A program made the translations under genes and the position numbers. A stretch of 64,000 nucleotides of DNA, taken from an uncultured Gammaproteobacteria bacterium (lineage in GTDB: Bacteria; Patescibacteriota; Patescibacteriia; UBA9934; CAZDDW01). This document shows positions 29,393 through 47,820 of this stretch, in pieces. Each line of letters begins with the position of its first letter. Position 1 is the first letter of the stretch. Location of the stretch: assembly GCA_965231015.1 (NCBI GenBank), contig OZ246408.1:921908-985907 (forward strand), written 5' to 3'. Under the pieces are notes generated by a model. The model saw nothing but the letters and a program-made list of their open reading frames with translations. It did no database searches and was not told the DNA's origin.

Positions 29393-30214
29393 CTACAACG
29401 GACTCGCGATATTGCGGACCGCCGGATTGGTCACATGCGTGTAAACTTGCGTCGTCCTGATATTCTGATGCCCGAGCAAAGCCTGCACATACCGCACATC
29501 AACGCCGTTCTCAAGCAGATGAGTAGCGAAAGAATGCCGGAGCGAATGAAACGTGGCCGGTTTTTTTATATCCGCGTGATTAAGCGCGTGCTCAAATATT
29601 TTCTGGGCCGTTCTTTTGGTAAGCTTGCCGCCGCGCTGGCTTTCGAACACCAGCGCGTCGCTGTCCCTGCCAAGACAAAGCACTCGGAGCGGTTCAACGA
29701 GCGAATCCGGCAACACACTGATCCGGTCCTTTTTGCCTTTGCCCTGCCTCACGAATACGGTTTTGCCCTCAAGATCGAGATCTTGAACGCGCACAGCCAC
29801 CGCTTCGCTGACGCGCAGACCGGCGGCGTAAGCGAGGCCAATTAAAGTCCGGTGCTTGAGGTTACGGATCGTCCCGAGCAGGCGCAAAATCTCATCGCGA
29901 GTGAGCGTACTCGGCAAACGCTTAGGCCGTTTAGCGTACGGCAATTTCAGGTCAAACGACCTCCCGAGCAAGTTACGCGCGTAAAACATAATCGCCTGCA
30001 AATGCAGATTAATGGTCGAAGCCGCCGCATCGCCATCATGCTTGGCCAGTAAAAACGACCCGAGCTCGTCATGGTCAACGCGATTCGGATCCGGATATTC
30101 CAAAAAAAATGCTTTTAGCGATCCCAGGTACGACTTTCTGGTCGCCGGACTGTAGTTTTTGAGCTTCAGAAAACGATCAGTCGCCTCCAGAGCCTCGGAG
30201 GTTGAAACAAACAT
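29393..30214 (-). CDS. tyrosine site-specific recombinase (Xer-like; candidate integrase of adjacent cassette array). ORF opens at 30349 but MFVSTSE start at 30214 is more plausible
   Basis: R-H-R-Y catalytic set: GLRVSEA (box I), HSLRHSFATHLL (box II), LGHQNIRTTQVYTHV; only about 90 aa between boxes so no IntI-specific insert. Confidence 0.8.
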   Translation of the reverse strand: MFVSTSEALEATDRFLKLKNYSPATRKSYLGSLKAFFLEYPDPNRVDHDELGSFLLAKHDGDAAASTINLHLQAIMFYARNLLGRSFDLKLPYAKRPKRLPSTLTRDEILRLLGTIRNLKHRTLIGLAYAAGLRVSEAVAVRVQDLDLEGKTVFVRQGKGKKDRISVLPDSLVEPLRVLCLGRDSDALVFESQRGGKLTKRTAQKIFEHALNHADIKKPATFHSLRHSFATHLLENGVDVRYVQALLGHQNIRTTQVYTHVTNPAVRNIASPL

Positions 30215-30260: not shown

Positions 30261-30382
30261 TCTAAATTTAAGGTAACATAAGTTTGTGCTTTTGTAAAGG
30301 GGTTGTACCTCACAAATATCCCCAAGCCGCATAATCTACAGCATCCCATCCTTTATCCGAACTTTACTTCACATATAAACGA

Positions 30383-30421
30383 GTTGTGGCGAAATCGCTT
30401 CGCTCCTTCGCCACAACGGCC
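30383..30421 (+). repeat. 37-nt hairpin module gttgtggcgaaatcgcttcgctccttcgccacaac (copy 1)
   Basis: identical copy at 33059..33097; starts with GTTGTGG core. Confidence 0.7.
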
Positions 30422-30546
30422 GGCGGCTACGCCTTTTGTTGCGCTCGTCGCTACGCGACATCGCACAACAGTCAGCTATGCGGACATGGCCCGTCGACGA
30501 GCAAGCTCGTCTCCGGACCACGTCGCATAGCCGCCGGCCGTTATAT
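30411..30546 (+). repeat. attC-like site A (R'' CCACAAC, 15-bp arms ggccggcggctacgc/gcatagccgccggcc, R' GTTATAT then GAAAT)
   Basis: imperfect inverted repeat with AAC...GTT boundary cores seen directly. Confidence 0.6.
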
Positions 30547-30580
30547 GAAATAAATTTTTAAAAATTAACTCCGTAAAATT

Positions 30581-30937
30581 ATGAAACCACAAATTAAAGC
30601 GATATACATGTCCGTTAAGGATATGCAAAGAGCAGTAAAATTCTATGAGGAAATTTTTGATGTTAAAGTCTCTTCTTCTGATGAGAGGATGAGCTCTTTC
30701 GACTTTGAAAATATTTCCTTCCTTTTGTTTGATCCAAGTGCTGATGGTGAAGAGGCTTCAATTGGCAATAACGTTGTCCCAAATATTGAGGTGGAAGATG
30801 TTAATAAAATGTTAGATTTGATAAAACAGAAAGGTTGTGAGATTGTTATGCCATTGGAAGAAATCGATAAGTATTTGATTTTTCAAACAAAAGATACGGA
30901 AGGAAATATCATAGAATTTTACCAGATAGGCCGTTAA
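30581..30937 (+). CDS. VOC family protein (glyoxalase/bleomycin-resistance/dioxygenase fold), cassette 1
   Basis: 118 aa, betaalphabetabetabeta module pattern; MKPQIKAIYMSVKDMQRAVKFYEEIFDV. Confidence 0.7.
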   Translation: MKPQIKAIYMSVKDMQRAVKFYEEIFDVKVSSSDERMSSFDFENISFLLFDPSADGEEASIGNNVVPNIEVEDVNKMLDLIKQKGCEIVMPLEEIDKYLIFQTKDTEGNIIEFYQIGR

Positions 30938-30955
30938 TTTTTAAAAATTTACATC

Positions 30956-31100
30956 ACATAACAGCGTGTATCTGGTTCGGCAGATTTGACGCAATTAGAT
31001 TCAAAAGGAATGTCAAATCAGCCTCTCCCAAATTTCGCAAAAAACTATTAGATTTTCAAAGGAGTTTTTGCGAAACTTCAGATACACGCGGACGTTGTGG
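30956..31100 (+). repeat. attC-like site B (R'' ACATAAC, arms agcgtgtatctg/cagatacacgcg, R' GTTGTGG then CGAAAT)
   Basis: 12-bp near-perfect inverted arms immediately inside AAC/GTT cores. Confidence 0.65.
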
Positions 31101-31134
31101 CGAAATAATGAAAAATTCTTTTGCCCTATTGGGC

Positions 31135-31164
31135 AAATTTAATCGGGGCAATTTTTATTCATTT
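31135..31164. repeat. left copy of perfect 30-bp inverted repeat atttaatcggggcaatttttattcattttt
   Basis: reverse complement present at 32338..32367; brackets the ANT-like gene. Confidence 0.85.
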
Positions 31165-31173
31165 TTAACGCAT

Positions 31174-32349
31174 ATGAAGGGCATTAAAAAATACACACAC
31201 GAAGAAAGAGAAGCGGTTCTTTATGAAATGGTTCCGCTTATTAAGCGCAAGTTTGGAAAAAATCTTTTGGCTATTGCCGCGCGCGGATCATTTGCACGAA
31301 ACACAGATTTGCCATATTCCGATTTAGAGCTTTTTGCTTTCTTGAAAGAAATGCCACGCGGCCAGAAAAAACTTCCTTACGCAAAAATGCATAAAATCAG
31401 AAATGGCCTTTCTGTAGAGCTTATCTGGATTACTGAAAAAACATACATTAACGAAGTTAAAGAAGTTAACGGATCTTGGTTTGGTGTTGGCTCGGAAAAG
31501 CTCTTGCCTGTCTACGGTAAAAAATTCATTGACAAATTGAACCGACACAAGCCAAAGAATGTAAAACAAAAAGCTCTGGAACAAGCGGCGGCATTATGGC
31601 CGGGCATTTTCTTTTCAAGCTCTGCTGTTATAAAGATCGCGGAACAAAAAGATCATGAAAAGGTCGCCCTTGCCATGTATCACATGTTTGAAAACATTTT
31701 GAATTTTTTAGCATTTATCAACCAATCGCCATATTCAAGTAGCTCGCAAAAGATTATTGAATCCAAAAAATTCAAAATTAAGCCAAAAGATTTTTCAAAA
31801 CTACAACAACTGATACTTCATGGGGATTTTCGAAAATATACCGAGATTCAAAAATTAACAGCAAGCGTTGTTAAGGATCTAAAGGCATATCTCCAAAATG
31901 CAGGCTTTGAACCAAGCGAAGATCTTGTTAGTAAAAAACGACCCGACCAATTTGGTATGAAAGATAAAACGACTCGTTACGAGCAGGCCGTGGAGATATG
32001 GGAAAAGGTCCAAGAATCCACGACCAAAACCCTTAATGCCGCTGAAACAAAAAACAAAGAAGGTATGGCGACCGTTATTAATGACATGTTTTTTCAGTAT
32101 CTAAAAATTCTGTCCTGCCTGAATACAAAAACCTTAAGATTTTCACAAATCATCACCGACGCGAAAAAATTGAAATACAAACCGGCAGGATTCTCCAAGC
32201 TGATTAGAATTATCGAGAATGGAGAATACGGCCAATTTGTTGAGATCAAAAAAGTTGTCATGAGCGTTTTTGCTGGACTCGAGAGCAAACTTGAAAAGTT
32301 AGGATATGAATTCTATCAAGATAATGTAGATCCGAATAAAAATGAATAA
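31174..32349 (+). CDS. aminoglycoside 4'-nucleotidyltransferase-like (ANT(4')/KNTase family) with tandemly duplicated C-terminal helical domain, cassette 2 (ORF opens 31108)
   Basis: EEREAVLYEMVPLIKRKFGKNLLAIAARGSFARNTDLPYSDLELFAFL closely parallels KNTase REERMKIVHEIKERILDKYGDDVKAIGVYGSLGRQTDGPYSDIEMMCVM; residues about 185-300 and 305-413 are paralogous. Confidence 0.75.
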   Translation: MKGIKKYTHEEREAVLYEMVPLIKRKFGKNLLAIAARGSFARNTDLPYSDLELFAFLKEMPRGQKKLPYAKMHKIRNGLSVELIWITEKTYINEVKEVNGSWFGVGSEKLLPVYGKKFIDKLNRHKPKNVKQKALEQAAALWPGIFFSSSAVIKIAEQKDHEKVALAMYHMFENILNFLAFINQSPYSSSSQKIIESKKFKIKPKDFSKLQQLILHGDFRKYTEIQKLTASVVKDLKAYLQNAGFEPSEDLVSKKRPDQFGMKDKTTRYEQAVEIWEKVQESTTKTLNAAETKNKEGMATVINDMFFQYLKILSCLNTKTLRFSQIITDAKKLKYKPAGFSKLIRIIENGEYGQFVEIKKVVMSVFAGLESKLEKLGYEFYQDNVDPNKNE

Positions 32350-32367
32350 AAATTGCCCCGATTAAAT
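32338..32367. repeat. right copy of perfect 30-bp inverted repeat (overlaps ANT-like stop codon)
   Basis: aaaaatgaataaaaattgccccgattaaat = reverse complement of 31135..31164. Confidence 0.85.
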
Positions 32368-32403
32368 AATTCGCTATCGCGAATTAAGAATTTTCATTAC
32401 ATC

Positions 32404-32490
32404 GTACAACAGCGTGTATGAGACTACGGCTTTTTACAAAAGCCTCCGCCCAAATTGCTACGCAACTTCGCATACACGCGAACGTTAACT
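32404..32490 (+). repeat. attC-like site C (R'' GTACAAC, arms agcgtgtatg/catacacgcg, R' GTTAACT then GAAAT)
   Basis: seen directly; 87 bp. Confidence 0.65.
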
Positions 32491-32720
32491 GAAATTTGCC
32501 TTAATTACTTTCATAAATAACGTATGCATTTACTCAAAAAAATAATATCACCCATACTGTACGTAGCTTTTCTCGCCCCTGTCTTCATAGGCACTATTGC
32601 CGTTATTGCATTTTAGAATTTACTATTGGTCTGTCGAGTTTTATTCTAACAGGACTCCCAGAAGTATTTATCTCATTTATTGCAATAGGCGGTTTATTAT
32701 TTTGGTTAGCCAACAAACTA

Positions 32721-32945
32721 ATGACGGGACTCGAAAATCTACTCAAACCAAATATACTCGATCACCTTCGTCAATCATCTTTGTACTATTATACAGTAGT
32801 TTACGCATTAATTGCGCTAATACGGTCTGGCTATCACGGCGGTCTCGGAGAAGCATACATGCTAATTGGATTGGCAACTTCAGTATGGGCGATTATTGTT
32901 AATGCAATTTTTTTGTATAAACGACGTAAGGCAAACATCAGCTAA
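32721..32945 (+). CDS. small 2-TM membrane protein, cassette 3 (possible frameshifted longer form from 32524)
   Basis: 74-aa ORF; upstream frames encode MHLLKKIISPILYVAFLAPVFIGTIAVIAF and ...EFTIGLSSFILTGLPEVFISFIAIGGLLFWLANKL which join with a 1-nt shift near a tttt run at 32611. Confidence 0.4.
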   Translation: MTGLENLLKPNILDHLRQSSLYYYTVVYALIALIRSGYHGGLGEAYMLIGLATSVWAIIVNAIFLYKRRKANIS

Positions 32946-33065
32946 CACTGCGTATGCGGTTACGGCTTGCTCCGTGCCTCCGCAAGCCTCCACCCATATT
33001 TGCCACTGCTACCGCTTCGCGATATTATAGCAGTGGCAAACATCGCCTATTCACGGACGTTGTGG
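32940..33065 (+). repeat. attC-like site D (R'' AGCTAAC overlapping stop codon, internal stems ccactgcta/tagcagtgg and ggcttgc/gcaagcc, R' GTTGTGG then CGAAAT) followed by hairpin module copy 2 (33059..33097)
   Basis: seen directly. Confidence 0.55.
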
Positions 33066-33152
33066 CGAAATCGCTTCGCTCCTTCGCCACAACGGCCAAT
33101 AAATTCTTTTTATTTATAATTTGGGGGAGTTTTATTCTCGCTTCGTAAAAAT

Positions 33153-33674
33153 ATGTCAAAATCACTGAATATAAAATTTGAAAAAGCTGTGCGAATTTTG
33201 TCGGAATATATGCCACCGTCTGATGAAAATAGCAAAAAGCCTGTGATGTTTCACGACATACGCGTTGGCGTGTATTTATATGAAAATGGTTATTCAGAAG
33301 ATGTTGTTTTGGCTGGCATTTTGCACGATACGATTGAATGGTCTGGTGCTAACGAACAATTATTGAGAGATGAATTCGGCGACAATGTTGTCCGCTTGAT
33401 TTTTGCAAGCACCAAAGATGATACGATTGTAGACAAGGTGGAAAAAACAAACGAACTGATCCAAAGGTGTGTGCAAAACGGGCAAGAAGCTCTTATTGTA
33501 AAAACCGCTGATATTATTGATAGCTTCAAGTGGTATGCCAGCCAAAACAACGAGGACGAACTGAAAAACCATTGTGTAAAGAACGCCAACGCTATTTTCA
33601 AATTTAAACCGGAAGATTTTGACGATAAAATATTTGATGAGCTTAAAATCTGGCAAGAAAGATTTGCGGTATAA
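33153..33674 (+). CDS. HD-domain metal-dependent phosphohydrolase, cassette 4
   Basis: H...HD...D motif: FHDIRVG and GILHDTIEW; 173 aa. Confidence 0.7.
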   Translation: MSKSLNIKFEKAVRILSEYMPPSDENSKKPVMFHDIRVGVYLYENGYSEDVVLAGILHDTIEWSGANEQLLRDEFGDNVVRLIFASTKDDTIVDKVEKTNELIQRCVQNGQEALIVKTADIIDSFKWYASQNNEDELKNHCVKNANAIFKFKPEDFDDKIFDELKIWQERFAV

Positions 33675-33729
33675 AACCGAATAAAACTTCCCCAAATACA
33701 TTAAGGAAGGAAGAATTTATTGGCACATC

Positions 33730-33819
33730 GGACAACACGGCATATCCGGTTCAAGAATTTTTGTTCCTCCGCCAGCCAGCGGATACACAAAAACTTCGGA
33801 TGATGCCGATACGTTAGGC
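33730..33819 (+). repeat. attC-like site E (R'' GGACAAC, arms acggcatatccg/cggatgatgccg, R' GTTAGGC)
   Basis: seen directly; 90 bp. Confidence 0.6.
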
Positions 33820-33846
33820 GCAATATCATTTTAATCAATTTTCCTT

Positions 33847-34443
33847 ATGGCAGACACAATTCTACTAAACAACGAAGCTTATCATATTAGCGAGGACGAC
33901 CTTCCTTGCCTCATTCATTATGCACCGAAAGCTGGCGGGTCTCATTTCTCAGTAGCAATGGTCGCTGATTTGTTTTTGCGTGGCTCAAAAATTTTGTTTC
34001 TTACAGCATATCCAATGGCCAAGGATAATTTTTTACAACAGATTAAAGGAGAAGAATCAAAAACTGCTTTTATCACTAATGCGAGTCAGCTTAACACTGA
34101 TGCACAAGCAATTATTCTGGAAAGTGGCAACGAAAAGCTATTTCTGCAAGCGGTTGAAAAGCTGGATGATCTAAACGAGCGTGTCGTGCTTGTAAAAAAT
34201 ATAGAAGTGTTCAGCGACGCAGTTTTTGAATCTTGTTTGAAACTGCAAAAAATTATCCTTTCCGGCAACTTAGACGAGTGCTCAATGAAAAAACAAATCA
34301 GCGAGAAGCAATATAAAACGACTGTAGTTTTCAGCAAGTCAGAAACTCCATTAAAAGTCGAGCCACCAGAGCTGGAAAAATACAAAGGTTATCTTTGGAG
34401 CGACGGCAAGGAAGGTCTAGTATCAGTTCAAATGGAAAATTGA
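33847..34443 (+). CDS. hypothetical protein, cassette 5
   Basis: 198-aa ORF beginning 28 nt after R' core. Confidence 0.5.
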   Translation: MADTILLNNEAYHISEDDLPCLIHYAPKAGGSHFSVAMVADLFLRGSKILFLTAYPMAKDNFLQQIKGEESKTAFITNASQLNTDAQAIILESGNEKLFLQAVEKLDDLNERVVLVKNIEVFSDAVFESCLKLQKIILSGNLDECSMKKQISEKQYKTTVVFSKSETPLKVEPPELEKYKGYLWSDGKEGLVSVQMEN

Positions 34444-34503
34444 TTAAAATGATACTCTTCGCCCGCCCTTCGGGACGTTGCACTCGGGCTCGACCTGCGG
34501 CGC

Positions 34504-34620
34504 GCCTAACACAGAATATGCGGTTTCACTCCCGTTGGTCGCTACACCCATATTTGCCAGAGGTCGCCCTTCGGGCATATTATACCGCTGTCAAACATCG
34601 CATACTGCGGAACGTTAGGC
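34504..34620 (+). repeat. attC-like site F (R'' GCCTAAC and R' GTTAGGC perfectly complementary; arms cagaatatgcg/cgcatactgcgg; then GAAAT); possible extra degenerate core GTTGCAC at 34477
   Basis: seen directly; 117 bp. Confidence 0.7.
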
Positions 34621-34671
34621 GAAATAATTTTCGGGGGCTACGTAAGATAACTTTTATTTACTTTAAACAAT

Positions 34672-35319
34672 ATGTCCAAAGTAATGAATCCAAAAATCAA
34701 AATCAAAGAAACTGCACTTCTTGTTATTGATGTCACTAACGCATGGGCTCATCCAACTTGCGAGATTAAAAAGTGGGATGTTACATTTGGGAAAATCCGC
34801 AAAATGGTCCCAAAACTCCAGAAATTCATTAAAGATTATCAATCAGTAGGTGGTAATGTTATTTACATAAAAAGCACACCTTGGGATAAGAAACATTTAG
34901 CCAAAAATCTTATTGAGTTTTACAAAGATCCTGCGGTTTGTTTTTATTCAAGAAATATTTATTCAGACAAAGTCAGAAAGTTTTCAGATGAATTTTACAA
35001 AATAAGTCCTGAAAAAAATGATGTTGTTCTTGAAAAAAACAGTTATGATGCTTTTGTTAATCCACAACTCAATAAGATTTTGAAAAAGAAGAAAATTAAG
35101 TATCTTATCCCGACCGGAGTTTTGGGAGATGGTTGTGTACACGCAACAATTCAGGGCGGATTTTCCCAAGGATATAATTATCTCATTCTAAAAGATTTAG
35201 TTGAAACAACAGATTTACCAATCAGACAAAGATTGATAAAAATGATGAGAGAATTCTATTGGCCCATGCTTTATGGAAAAACTATCAATGCTAAAAGTTT
35301 CTTTGATTTTGTGGAGTAG
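34672..35319 (+). CDS. isochorismatase-family cysteine hydrolase, cassette 6
   Basis: ALLVIDVTNAW (catalytic Asp region) and LIPTGVLGDGCVHATIQGG (catalytic Cys). Confidence 0.75.
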   Translation: MSKVMNPKIKIKETALLVIDVTNAWAHPTCEIKKWDVTFGKIRKMVPKLQKFIKDYQSVGGNVIYIKSTPWDKKHLAKNLIEFYKDPAVCFYSRNIYSDKVRKFSDEFYKISPEKNDVVLEKNSYDAFVNPQLNKILKKKKIKYLIPTGVLGDGCVHATIQGGFSQGYNYLILKDLVETTDLPIRQRLIKMMREFYWPMLYGKTINAKSFFDFVE

Positions 35320-35390
35320 AACGCCCCCGAAAATTACTTGCTCACTTCGTTCGCACCCCGCTGCGCTCTCCTCCCGTTGGTCGTCGGATC

Positions 35391-35455
35391 ACTTAACAAG
35401 GATTATGAGGAAAATGGCTCGGCTCGGCATTTTCCTCATAATCCTGACGTTAGGA
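35391..35455 (+). repeat. attC-like site G1 (R'' ACTTAAC, perfect 18-19-bp arms aaggattatgaggaaaatg/cattttcctcataatcct, R' GTTAGGA)
   Basis: seen directly; 65 bp. Confidence 0.7.
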
Positions 35456-43182: not shown

Positions 43183-43392
43183 CTGCCACGATCGTTACAA
43201 CTGAATATAGCCCATTTTTGGGCTAACATTGTACAAGAAATCCAATCTATTTCTGACAAGTCCAGGAAAGCTGCAAAAAGAGCAACATCCCCGCCTTCGG
43301 ACGGGATAAATTGTCTGCTCAGCGATTGCAACGTCAAATCTCGTAGATATAAATCTACAAACAGGACAGATACCACCGGTTTTACCGTGGTG

Positions 43393-44878
<1,486 letters not shown>

Positions 44879-44971
44879 CTAAAGGAAAAATCTCGCCATC
44901 GGCGAGACATCCTAGGTCGAGATCTGACGCTGTCAGATCTTCGACGTTGCAATCGCTGAGCAAAGACAAAA

Positions 44972-45372: not shown

Positions 45373-47820
45373 TCAGGTTTTCGCCGGACCTGAGTTACTG
45401 GAAGGATCATTGTCGTCGTCGGCCGAGTTGCCGCGACGCTTGGACGTGGACTCCGAACCGAGTGAACTCGACTCCTCGATCGAGCCGGAGTCGCCGTAGA
45501 CCGGCAACTCTTGAGCTTCAGTACCGTACTCGGGCATCCCCTCAGTCGTAGCCGCGGCCATGCTGGCCGAGTCATCAGGCTCGTCTTCGTCCGGATCAAC
45601 CAAGGATTGTTCCGAGGTATCCGGCTCGCCTTCGAGCTCGATGCTGCCGTCCGGATCGTGATACGACTCCTCGTCCGAGGGAACAAGCGCGATGCGTTGT
45701 TCCTGACTCGGCGTGCCAAGCGTAGTGTCCTCCCTCACACTGCCCTCGTCGATCTCCTCGGCCACGTCCGTGATGGGCGGTGGCGTGGGATCGACCATGA
45801 CCGGTGCCTCGACCTCTCGGTGCGAAAGCCCGGAGATGTCACGGGTTGGTGGAGGGGTGTCGACCGCTTCGTCCACAGTATCGAGATGAATCGGTGGAGC
45901 CGAATCTCCGACACTCGACTCGTCGTCTTCGTCCTCCGGACACCGACTCGGTCGCTCCTCGGTGGTATCACCCTCGAGTTCCGACTCCGGTTCAATTCCC
46001 GGTTCCGGAATTGGAATGCCGTCCTCGATCGCCTGCAGGCTGGCCGAAAGCGGTATCTCGGGCAGCTTTCCCCTGAAGCGAGGATGCTGCGGCGGCTTGG
46101 CCTCCGGGTCAGACGCATCAACGGTCTGCTCGGAAGGGAGATCCGAAGTGGTGAGCATCTTGAACTCATCAGACTCCGCCTCGTCTCCCTCACCTCCGGA
46201 CGGATCCGAGCTACTGCTCGAATCCGACTCATCAAACGACGAGGGCATGCTCATCATGGCAATCTCCTCGTCGGAGTTGGGCGGACCGTCATCCCGGAAG
46301 GCCTCTCCCTCTTCGTACTCGTCCAGTTCCCCAGCCGGAATGGCCGGTGGTGGAGCGGGTAGTTGCACGAGGGTGAAGTTGATCTTGGTAAGATCAAACT
46401 CTCGGGAGGTGATCTCGGCCTCGATCCTCATCATGGCTTCAACCATAGCCTCGCACAAGTCGATACTGCGGTTGATCGCGATCTTCTGAGCATCTGTGAA
46501 GAAGTCAAACACCTCACTGGCTTCGCCCTGCGGCAGAGCCAGATACACGGCCATGGCCGCGTTATCGAGGCATGCCAACTCTTCGAACTGACGCCGCGAG
46601 GTCGCGGTCGTGGTGCGACCCACGTGCTCGATGATGTCTGCGTGAGGCTGACGTACCGTAGCATGGTACAGGTGGAAGGCATAACGCGCGAACTCGTCGA
46701 GCTCGGAGCATTGACTGTCGGTGAGGGTCTGCTCCGGACTCTGCCGGCCAAGGATGCGCACGATGTCCGCCGGACGGATCATACGCAGATCCATCTGCCG
46801 GGCCACCCGAGCAAACACGTCCGGGTTGTGCTGGTACACGCGGCGCAGGAACTCCACGAGCTCCGGCGCCGAGTAGAACTCGAACGTCCAGACGAGCAGG
46901 CGTACCCACGTATTCAGGAGACGTGGTGGCAGCTCCTGGGGAGACCAGAACGGTTCACCCTGGGAGATGTACATGGCCGTACGGATAGTATCCGACCAAG
47001 GCACGTGCACAGCTGTCACAGCCGGCCGGATTCCGAGAGCCGGATCGATCCCGATCTCGGCCATCACCTGACGGTAGGCGTGATCGACCCCCATGAGGTC
47101 GTACCCCTGGGTAGCAAACACGAAACCGTTTAGATCCCCTTCCTGGTGCAAGAACGGGCTCACCGCCTTGAAGGGCTGGTGTAACTCTGCGGCCTGCAGG
47201 AACGAGACCCGCGTTTCTTCACTCGGTGCAGCGAGCGCCGTGAAATGGCGGGTCATCTCCGGGGATTGGATCCGGGCGAGCGTCAGCACAGCGTCGTCTT
47301 CCGTGTACACCCCAGTGCCGAACCGTCCCGTTGCAGCGTACCCGGGCAATTCCCGCTCGGTCATGATCTCCCGAATCCAGCCGGTCATTTGCCGGTTGAA
47401 CTCCTCGGGCTTCAGCGCCCCGGTCGACTGATCGATCGACATCATGGCGATGTACTCCAGCAGCTGACCAATGGCCGCCTCCTGAAGCTGCATGATGCTA
47501 GCGATCTCGCGGGCCTCGCGCCGGCGGTTCGTATCACGAATCAGCTGGGCTCGCAGGAAGCGCATGCGCTTGGCCTGCTCACCAATGAGGTTGCGATAGA
47601 AGTCCGGGAGTTCGATTCCCTGCTGCTCGGCCAGTCGGTACACCAGATCCGAGAACTCGTGATCCGGATCCCCGGCCGGGCGGTGCGCGATGATGCGCGG
47701 GTCGATAAGCGGTCGGGCACCGTTGATGACCCCGAGCTCCTTGAGGGCCTCGACGAGGTCATCGCCGAGGTAGTGCCGATATACGGCTTCCACTTCTTCG
47801 TTTCTGTCCTGCTCCAACAT
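45373..47820 (-). CDS. hypothetical 815-aa protein in about 63% GC island; folded N-terminal about 500 aa plus about 320-aa acidic S/D/E/P-rich disordered C-terminus
   Basis: single long minus-strand ORF spanning the island with its own terminator; plus-strand ORFs are Arg/Leu-rich antisense artefacts. Confidence 0.6.
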   Translation of the reverse strand: MLEQDRNEEVEAVYRHYLGDDLVEALKELGVINGARPLIDPRIIAHRPAGDPDHEFSDLVYRLAEQQGIELPDFYRNLIGEQAKRMRFLRAQLIRDTNRRREAREIASIMQLQEAAIGQLLEYIAMMSIDQSTGALKPEEFNRQMTGWIREIMTERELPGYAATGRFGTGVYTEDDAVLTLARIQSPEMTRHFTALAAPSEETRVSFLQAAELHQPFKAVSPFLHQEGDLNGFVFATQGYDLMGVDHAYRQVMAEIGIDPALGIRPAVTAVHVPWSDTIRTAMYISQGEPFWSPQELPPRLLNTWVRLLVWTFEFYSAPELVEFLRRVYQHNPDVFARVARQMDLRMIRPADIVRILGRQSPEQTLTDSQCSELDEFARYAFHLYHATVRQPHADIIEHVGRTTTATSRRQFEELACLDNAAMAVYLALPQGEASEVFDFFTDAQKIAINRSIDLCEAMVEAMMRIEAEITSREFDLTKINFTLVQLPAPPPAIPAGELDEYEEGEAFRDDGPPNSDEEIAMMSMPSSFDESDSSSSSDPSGGEGDEAESDEFKMLTTSDLPSEQTVDASDPEAKPPQHPRFRGKLPEIPLSASLQAIEDGIPIPEPGIEPESELEGDTTEERPSRCPEDEDDESSVGDSAPPIHLDTVDEAVDTPPPTRDISGLSHREVEAPVMVDPTPPPITDVAEEIDEGSVREDTTLGTPSQEQRIALVPSDEESYHDPDGSIELEGEPDTSEQSLVDPDEDEPDDSASMAAATTEGMPEYGTEAQELPVYGDSGSIEESSSLGSESTSKRRGNSADDDNDPSSNSGPAKT

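Follow-up and report, generated by a model that had tools for sequence, protein, structure and literature searches.

Among gene-capture systems, integrons contribute most to multi-drug resistance, and their chemistry relies on a small folded DNA site. In the classical integrons (class 1 and the chromosomal integrons of Vibrio) a divergent tyrosine recombinase lies beside the attI junction and is followed by units that mostly carry a single open reading frame (ORF) in the same orientation. Each unit ends in attC, an imperfect palindrome that has ...AAC / GTT... cores. A given cassette can occupy differing positions in different arrays and has its boundaries at G|TT, and the fold of the attC is biased toward the bottom strand. 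Complementarity ends near the 7-bp R box (at most ~12 nt in class 1), and the classical integrases use an IntI-specific domain to read the small folded attC. Classical cassettes consist of one coding sequence (CDS) with 'small adjacent regions' (PMC5371416). We analyzed a stretch of 64,000 nucleotides (the window; contig OZ246408.1, positions 921,908 to 985,907, assembly GCA_965231015.1) that was deposited as an uncultured Gammaproteobacteria bacterium and belongs to the Patescibacteriota according to GTDB. In this window a long perfect inverted repeat brackets a gene for an ANT(4')-like nucleotidyltransferase, which is the cargo of one cassette (the ANT cassette) in an integron-like array. 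We are confident that the repeat is part of an extended palindrome intrinsic to the cassette, and the sequence patterns described below suggest that it probably serves as an outward extension of the attC-like site, acting in single-stranded bottom-strand DNA.

The array shares the general layout of the classical integrons. A tyrosine recombinase encoded on the minus strand is followed by plus-strand units, each ending in an imperfect palindrome with ...AAC / GTT... cores, and the cassettes run in a single orientation, divergent from the integrase, starting from an attI-like junction that adjoins it. Seven units were found (30384-35449), bounded by recombination points at the G of GTT in positions 30383, 30540, 31094, 32484, 33059, 33813, 34614, and 35449. 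The first unit (30384-30540) was found to contain no ORF. The cargos other than the ANT gene are glyoxalase, HD, and isochorismatase proteins according to Pfam, and unknown proteins. The same layout was found in another assembly (L002; all other loci are likewise denoted by L and a number), and the contig of L006 also has a related integrase. A motif ...A(A/G)AAACGAG|TT, corresponding to the attI-like junction of the window, adjoins the integrase in L005, L193, L210, and L137 too.

The two arms of the repeat, ATTTAATCGGGGCAATTTTTATTCATTTTTA at 31137-31167 and its reverse complement at 32337-32367, match at 31 of 31 nt and are separated by 1169 nt. The original prediction described a 30-bp repeat with an abutting palindrome. 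The repeat is real and the coordinates of its right copy were correct, but its actual length is 31 bp, and the left copy of the 30-mer is located at 31137-31166 and not at 31135-31164. The palindrome also exists, as 18 nt at 31120-31137 rather than 19 nt at 31119-31137. The left arm lies in the 5' leader of the cargo gene. Since positions 2-241 of the ANT(4')-I profile align to residues 3-242, and since most homologues are exactly 391 aa long, we assign the start to ATG 31174 and not to the upstream ATG 31108. This places the end of the left arm 6 nt upstream of the start codon, instead of the 9 nt reported before. The right arm spans the last three codons, part of a fourth, and the TAA at 32347-32349, in agreement with the reported overlap with the stop codon.

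No second copy of the repeat with three or fewer mismatches was found in the 64-kb window, and 100 shuffles of the window gave zero matches at the same threshold. An assembly artefact was ruled out as the source of the repeat, as two independent assemblies (L002 and L006) carry both arms in identical form and L005 has an identical left arm. Ungapped complementarity between leader and trailer was scored across the window for all non-overlapping ORFs that encode 90 aa or more. The scores were 21, 31, 16, 21, and 14 for ORFs in cassettes (the 31 of the ANT cassette uses the start at ATG 31174), while all 43 non-cassette genes scored 10 or less. For mismatched gene pairs the best complementarity had a mean of 7.1 (sd 1.1) and a maximum of 13 (n = 2256). 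The earlier statements that the match is far beyond chance, and that the repeat is non-random and either of recent origin or under selection, are upheld.

The repeat is not special to one gene, as had been assumed, but an array- and lineage-wide property: every scored ORF-bearing cassette pairs its leader with its trailer, each in its own sequence. When trailers were compared with leaders in a matrix, only the diagonal stood out, with scores of 21, 31, 16, 21, and 14 for the own leader and 4-8 for the following leader across the attC. The structure is therefore intrinsic to each cassette, forming either a loop-closing stem in the array or a rod in the excised circle. Because the repeat bracketing the ANT gene is the outer part of a long hairpin that recurs in every scored cassette of the array, it is probably a recombination structure. 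Of the earlier readings that of a recombination substrate came closest, with the difference that the arms belong to a site-specific attC-like substrate and not to a substrate for homologous recombination.

Homology with copies of the ANT cassette from other arrays marks both of its limits and gives a length of 1390 nt, equal to the repeat spacing. The entire leader (31095-31167) aligns, imperfectly, with the reverse complement of the trailer (32337-32410), and pairing reaches 73 nt past R' and R'', the outer boxes of the attC-like core. From the ORF inward the order is the 31-bp distal block, one 18-nt hairpin per side, the proximal block, and the R'/R'' core. The two local hairpins are unlike in sequence and each is self-complementary; in L008 a hairpin with another stem (CCGCCAC-TATC-GTGGCGG) occupies the same place as 31120-31137. 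Read from the sequence, the attC-like cores are CATC-NNNN-AAC and GTT-NNNN-GAAAT. A classical attC measures ~57-141 nt with complementarity ending at the R box, and class 1 integron cassettes subjected to the same test scored only 6-12, corresponding to the R box and ~5 nt.

The junction of the excised circle (trailer, attC, and leader; 237 nt) is predicted to fold on the bottom strand into one continuous rod, consisting of the 31-bp stem, a four-way junction with the two hairpins, the proximal block, the R box, the L box, and the tip. The predicted folding free energy was -75.8 kcal/mol for the bottom strand compared to -27 ± 3.6 kcal/mol for shuffles (z = -13.4). The top strand was 6.5 kcal/mol weaker at -69.3 kcal/mol, with shuffles at about -25 to -27 kcal/mol. 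Features of an attC were present in the predicted bottom-strand fold, i.e., the R box, an asymmetric 3-nt bulge, the L stem, and a branched tip.

Homologues of the cargo gene allowed the flanking frame (leader, trailer, and attC) to be compared with the gene; 32 were found and 16 loci were examined. Between the window, L002, and L006 the leader was 92-94% and the trailer with attC 95-97% identical, whereas the CDS was only 72-81% identical. This indicates purifying selection on the sequence of the frame. L008, L010, and L220 have a diverged frame and retain the pairing. Compensatory pairs were counted explicitly, with only two or three distinct frame types available: between the window-type and L008-type frames eight pairs had changed on both sides, five in the distal arm and three in the proximal block, and the lone non-Watson-Crick position was A.C. 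A compensatory 1-bp insertion on both sides of the right hairpin was found in L001 (AATTCGCC-TATC-GGCGAATT). In L003 and L004, where the ORF reads through, 10 nt of the right arm have been lost, apparently by slippage.

The frame belongs to the cassette and not to the gene, for three reasons. Homologues in ordinary chromosomal or operon contexts (L007, L012/L013, L014, and L219) have no frame. L001 and L005 have a second gene downstream of the ANT ORF, and there the right arm follows this gene and still adjoins the attC. Finally, the L005 cassette that adjoins the ANT cassette combines an L008-like frame and a near-identical attC with an unrelated cargo. The ANT cassette was found in at least six arrays with different neighbours, in L005 as the first cassette at attI, and its homology begins and ends at the G|TT cores, as expected for a discrete mobile unit.

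Some of these loci show rearrangements of their own. The inserted gene in L001 (2594-3397) and L005 (1395-2198) encodes a 267-aa protein of unknown function and gives rise to two-gene cassettes, in which a duplicated remnant of ~60 nt from the ANT 3' end precedes the right arm. In L008 (134-5683) the ANT cassette is duplicated in tandem together with a neighbour encoding 169 aa, with the two identical ANT copies located 2408 nt apart. L220 contains a minimal site (1236-1330) in which R'' CATCATATAAC is directly followed by AACGAG|TTATATGAAAT, an attI-type-like junction instead of a full attC. The ANT cassette of the window begins with TTGTGGCGAAAT (31095-31106), as do the attI of the window and the cassette at 33060. 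In L001, L003, L005, and L006 the ANT cassette begins with TTGTACGAAAT, the perfect complement of its own R'' (CATCGTACAAC). These differing starts suggest exchange or conversion within ~8 nt 3' of the canonical G|TT point.

To determine how widespread the structure is we fetched 80 Patescibacteria loci, out of more than 590, by alignment of integrase relatives and scanned 77 of them for long-range inverted repeats (loop of 150-3000 nt, score of at least 15). On the cassette side of the integrase 168 such repeats were found in 347 kb, compared to 36 in 652 kb on the other side, i.e., they were 8-9 times denser. The enclosed ORF was divergent from the integrase for 157 of the 168 repeats and covered a median of 95% of the loop. 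Examples from the survey showed the same anatomy, with arms of up to ~140 nt per side that enter the ORF by several codons (L193). Repeats were often nested on one unit, with scores of 18, 31, and 41 in L193, and the score reached 52 in L210. A single motif shared by all arms was rejected, as the arms are diverse with few recurring frame families.

The imperfect positions of the 168 stems were examined for a strand preference. Read on the sense strand, A.C mismatches outnumbered G.T mismatches by 67 to 11 (p = 9e-10) and A.A outnumbered T.T by 45 to 7 (p = 4e-7), while a ratio of ~1.1 is predicted from the arm composition in both cases. The direction was the same in 32 of the 35 contributing loci (p = 4e-7). 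Seen from the bottom strand, these A.C and A.A positions are G.T and T.T, which are among the least destabilising mismatches in DNA. The asymmetry therefore points to folding of bottom-strand DNA, as in classical attC recombination, and is the opposite of what is predicted for a stem in sense RNA. In the glyoxalase cassette of the window all four mismatches in the stem are A.C or A.A on the sense strand.

The recombinase of the window is a short tyrosine recombinase of the integron type. It scored 205 bits in two stretches against the TIGR02249 integron integrase model, which is below the cut-off of 265, and its best match in the PDB was archaeal XerA (4a8e, 9e-40). Aligned to VchIntIA (2a3v), residues 10-177 correspond to 7-178 and residues 197-273 to 241-317. 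Between these stretches 19 residues stand against 62, so that ~43 residues fewer are found, at the presumed position of the IntI-specific domain. The protein is 34% identical to IntI1 with the same gap, and keeps the IntI-like C-terminus ...ASPL. In addition to the shorter integrase, the array differs from classical integrons by complementarity that runs for 40-140 nt per side as far as the ORF, in some cases entering it, and by a conserved GAAAT after R'. Judged by sequence, the system is integron-like, but its integrase apparently lacks the IntI-specific domain and its attC pairing does not stop at the R box, two features that define classical integrons. The Xer/dif systems resemble it in that the integrase is nearest in sequence to XerA, whereas a single 28-bp duplex dif site takes the place of the 80-140-nt folded palindromes found here in an array with cargo genes. 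The family of the integrase comprises 6685 proteins at E < 1e-30 and more than 590 genome loci, of which a part was checked for adjacent arrays. Such arrays appear widespread in Patescibacteria. The names of the closest integrase relatives likewise point to a Patescibacteria (CPR) bacterium as the host.

Table 1. Position of the integrase, the attI-like junction, and the cassette features in the window (the arm pairing of each cassette is given with its leader).
Feature	Coordinates	Strand	Remarks
Short integron-type tyrosine recombinase	29393..30214	-	273 aa from Met at 30214; open frame continues to 30349; Pfam Phage_integrase 5e-46
attI-like junction ...ATATAAACGAG|TTGTGG	30370..30389	+	G at 30383; motif recurs beside the integrase elsewhere
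Leader arm, glyoxalase cassette	30537..30569	+	Partner 30933-30965; contiguous with R'/R''; 33 nt at 88%; score 21
Whole ANT cassette	31095..32484	+	Starts one base past the G of the R' before it; ends on the G of its own R'
R'-proximal leader block GAAATAATGAAAAATTCTT	31102..31120	+	Partner 32386-32403, with which it covaries in the L008-type cassette
Left local hairpin TTTGCCC-TATT-GGGCAAA	31120..31137	+	18 nt; adjoins left arm
Left arm of the repeat	31137..31167	+	ORF-proximal (distal) leader block; 31/31 complementary to 32337-32367
Cargo ORF, ANT(4')-like nucleotidyltransferase	31174..32349	+	391 aa with extra C-terminal region; NCBIfam ANT_4p_I 3e-18; Pfam KNTase_C; 32 homologues
Right arm of the repeat	32337..32367	+	Overlaps last codons and stop codon
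Right local hairpin AATTCGC-TATC-GCGAATT	32368..32385	+	18 nt; adjoins right arm on the outside; mirror-image partner of left hairpin
R''-proximal trailer block AAGAATTTTCATTACATC	32386..32403	+	Pairs with 31102-31120
attC-like core, R'' GTACAAC to R' GTTAACT	32404..32490	+	Imperfect palindrome; R and L boxes, asymmetric bulge, and variable tip in bottom-strand fold
Leader arm, HD-domain cassette	33119..33137	+	Partner 33679-33697; outer block 33098-33108 pairs with 33711-33721; score 16
Leader arm, 198-aa cassette	33824..33844	+	Partner 34434-34454 overlaps its stop codon; 21/21 perfect
Leader arm, isochorismatase cassette	34625..34638	+	Partner 35323-35336; 14/14

Altogether, we favour a role of the extended palindrome in cassette recombination, in which it would act as single-stranded bottom-strand DNA in the manner of a classical attC, with ~70-140 nt added on each side. 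In the array, the stem formed by leader and trailer would zip the cargo into a loop and thereby place the crossover points 31094 and 32484 side by side for excision. Excision is believed to be favoured when both flanking sites fold at the same time (PMC5371416). In the excised circle the same sequences would form a continuous rod of roughly 100 bp with the attC as its cap, which would stabilise or present the folded site for insertion at attI. For this XerA-like integrase the longer stem may substitute for the IntI-specific domain, if the gap is indeed the place of that domain. A cassette-closing stem would also explain why the non-coding frame is better conserved than the gene.

Several points weigh against this role. 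XerA, the closest solved relative of the integrase, acts on duplex dif sites. For the cassettes of the window the bottom strand was only 0.3-1.8 kcal/mol more stable in five of six cases and less stable in one, and since the arms of the ANT cassette are perfect, its own stem is silent with respect to the strand. The excess of A.C could arise in part from strand-biased mutation, for example if an exposed bottom strand is deaminated, which does not readily account for the larger number of A.A than of T.T. Arm placement is looser in the wider set, where the right arm reaches across the stop codon in ~31% of cases (with a crude ORF call). Hairpin-templated repair could also keep the complementarity without any selected function.

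The last point leads to the alternative that retains most weight, although we consider it unlikely: the palindrome may be a by-product, either a footprint of the way cassettes are made or the result of hairpin-templated repair or gene conversion between the arms whenever a strand folds. In both L005 cassettes the arm runs past the shared frame into a reverse-complement copy of the last codons of their own cargo, so that arms extend into each cargo even where the shared frame is identical. Perfect arms of 31/31 nt stand beside imperfect inner blocks, and conversion from arm to arm would generate compensatory changes as well. However, arm conversion alone gives no purifying selection of the kind indicated by a frame that is 92-97% identical around a CDS of 72-81% identity, and the strand-specific mismatch spectrum implies that the stability of one strand's fold matters.

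Somewhat more doubtful is a device acting in mRNA, in which the stem in the transcript occludes the AU-rich start region, or serves as a double-stranded RNA processing or stability element that cuts each cistron from the array transcript, like the stem around 16S rRNA. The original prediction had considered a long-range mRNA stem, and the predicted RNA fold of the ANT cassette does close the ORF with the same stem. Furthermore, the right arm overlaps the stop codon, and no Shine-Dalgarno motif is present in the 6 nt between the left arm and the ATG, yet the 3' end of the 16S rRNA has a canonical anti-Shine-Dalgarno sequence. The 16S gene of the window is itself bracketed by a 20-nt perfect repeat of like kind. 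Like the cassette stems, such pre-rRNA processing stems bracket a whole gene with a long-range perfect repeat and close it into a loop. They act in RNA, whereas the mismatches of the cassette stems show the pattern of the antisense DNA strand, and these stems run directly into a recombination site. Under selection on sense RNA, mismatches of the G.U type should prevail, while A.C and A.A were six times as frequent as G.T and T.T in the 168 stems. The pairing is specific for own leader and own trailer, it follows the attC and not the ORF in two-gene cassettes, and many cassettes have their arms tens of nucleotides from the ATG. An effect on mRNA is possible as a by-product only.

It is very improbable that the arms are the ends of a transposase-less element, resembling a miniature inverted-repeat transposable element (MITE) or a mobile insertion cassette (MIC), that brought the gene into a pre-existing cassette, as had also been proposed. 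Such elements likewise have terminal inverted repeats around a passenger gene and no transposase. The observation that fits is L007, where the gene lies in a GC island, homology ends at the innermost 8 nt of both arms, and GTAC is located near each end; this is one case only. No target-site duplication was found outside the repeats (CAAA| vs |AATT), the repeat is single-copy in the window at up to three mismatches, and there is no family of identical ends, as each cassette has different arms in the same geometry. The arms lie within a larger palindrome tied to the attC: complementarity runs on beyond the 31-mer to R'/R'', the arms are in fixed register with the attC and covary with the attC-proximal frame, and the right arm keeps its place by the attC when a second gene is present. 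Copies in the loci fetched by protein homology were all the same cassette in the same frame. A metagenome scan with the unspecific 15-mer AAAATTGCCCYGATT gave at least 120 matches, and among the matches listed only L073, another ANT cassette, was genuine. That the arms flip the gene relative to an array promoter is hardly credible. Homologous inversion could occasionally take place between perfect inverted arms of 31 bp, but all 10 framed homologous cassettes share one orientation, and so do 157 of the 168 enclosed ORFs relative to the integrase.

Regulatory signals were also considered for the arms. The G-run of the arm (CGGGGC / TTTGGGGGC) was rejected as a Shine-Dalgarno sequence because its distance to the ATG varies, ranging from 19 to 39 nt. 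Predicted promoters over the array numbered 23 compared to 14.5 ± 3.9 in shuffles, and predicted terminators 6 compared to 5.1; neither was clearly above the shuffles, and promoter and terminator roles of the arms were rejected. Promoter-like matches of the form TTGCCA-17/18-TATTAT (10 of 12 positions) were found at 33000-33028 and 34554-34583, inside two attC sites and facing the next cassette. The motif CCCATATTTGCC...GCAAACATCG is recurrent in the attCs of other arrays.

The ANT cargo scored 66 bits against the NCBIfam ANT(4')-I equivalog, below the cut-off of 350. By these profile matches it is a distant, resistance-like relative of ANT(4')/KNTase, with ~140 extra C-terminal residues. The cassette at 32485-33059 carries only short membrane-like ORFs (32526-32945), encoding 30 aa and then 74 aa in another frame, and its cargo may be frameshifted; the last of these ORFs stops inside R'' (AGCTAAC). 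Outside the array, the repeat around the 16S rRNA gene (43394-44878) is located at 43316-43335 and 44943-44962. It corresponds to the usual pre-rRNA processing stem and is the fourth long perfect repeat of the window. No 23S gene follows the 16S gene within the window, and the rRNA genes therefore appear unlinked. Directly after the 16S gene, region 45373-47820 has a high GC content (0.53-0.61 compared to 0.44 for the window) and holds an 815-aa ORF on the minus strand.

Two further observations concern frames and cargos that occur apart. An identical element of 35-39 nt, GTTGTGGCGAA-ATCGCTTCGCTCC-TTCGCCACAAC, is present at attI (30383-30417) and at the start of the HD cassette (33059-33093). 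In sequence it looks like an 'empty' unit: R' with a short leader pairs with R'' and its short trailer, and a loop of 13 nt takes the place of the cargo. In L007 (3982-5186), a metagenome-assembled genome of Uhrbacteria, the ANT homologue follows dnaE as an island of 37% GC in a contig of ~55% GC. Of each arm, only the innermost 8 nt (TTCATTTT ... AAAATGAA) still belong to the homology with the cassette. GTAC is located no more than 1 nt from either end, and this cargo may have moved out of, or into, a frame. The chassis shared with unrelated genes, the 'empty' unit at 30383-30417, and the frame-less L007 copy point to a more speculative reading, to which we give low confidence, namely that the frames preserve the way in which cassettes are assembled. 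In this reading an attC with palindromic leader and trailer would be a reusable chassis that takes up cargo at the hairpin tip, and the leader would then be templated from the 3' end of the cargo.

Neither integron arrays in Patescibacteria nor attC extensions that bracket the ORF were described in the literature searched; its coverage was incomplete and a prior description is possible. The extended site points to a different way of presenting the substrate, in which flanking sites are brought together or the excised circle is stabilised. In practice, the leader/trailer signature can be used to find cassettes that may be missed where attC models are fitted to classical sites. How integron cassettes originate is a long-standing question. 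If cassettes are indeed built on a reusable chassis, the sequences of these arrays would bear directly on how the cassettes and their sites arose, and the Patescibacteria would harbour an integron lineage defined by a short integrase that relies on long cassette-closing stems.

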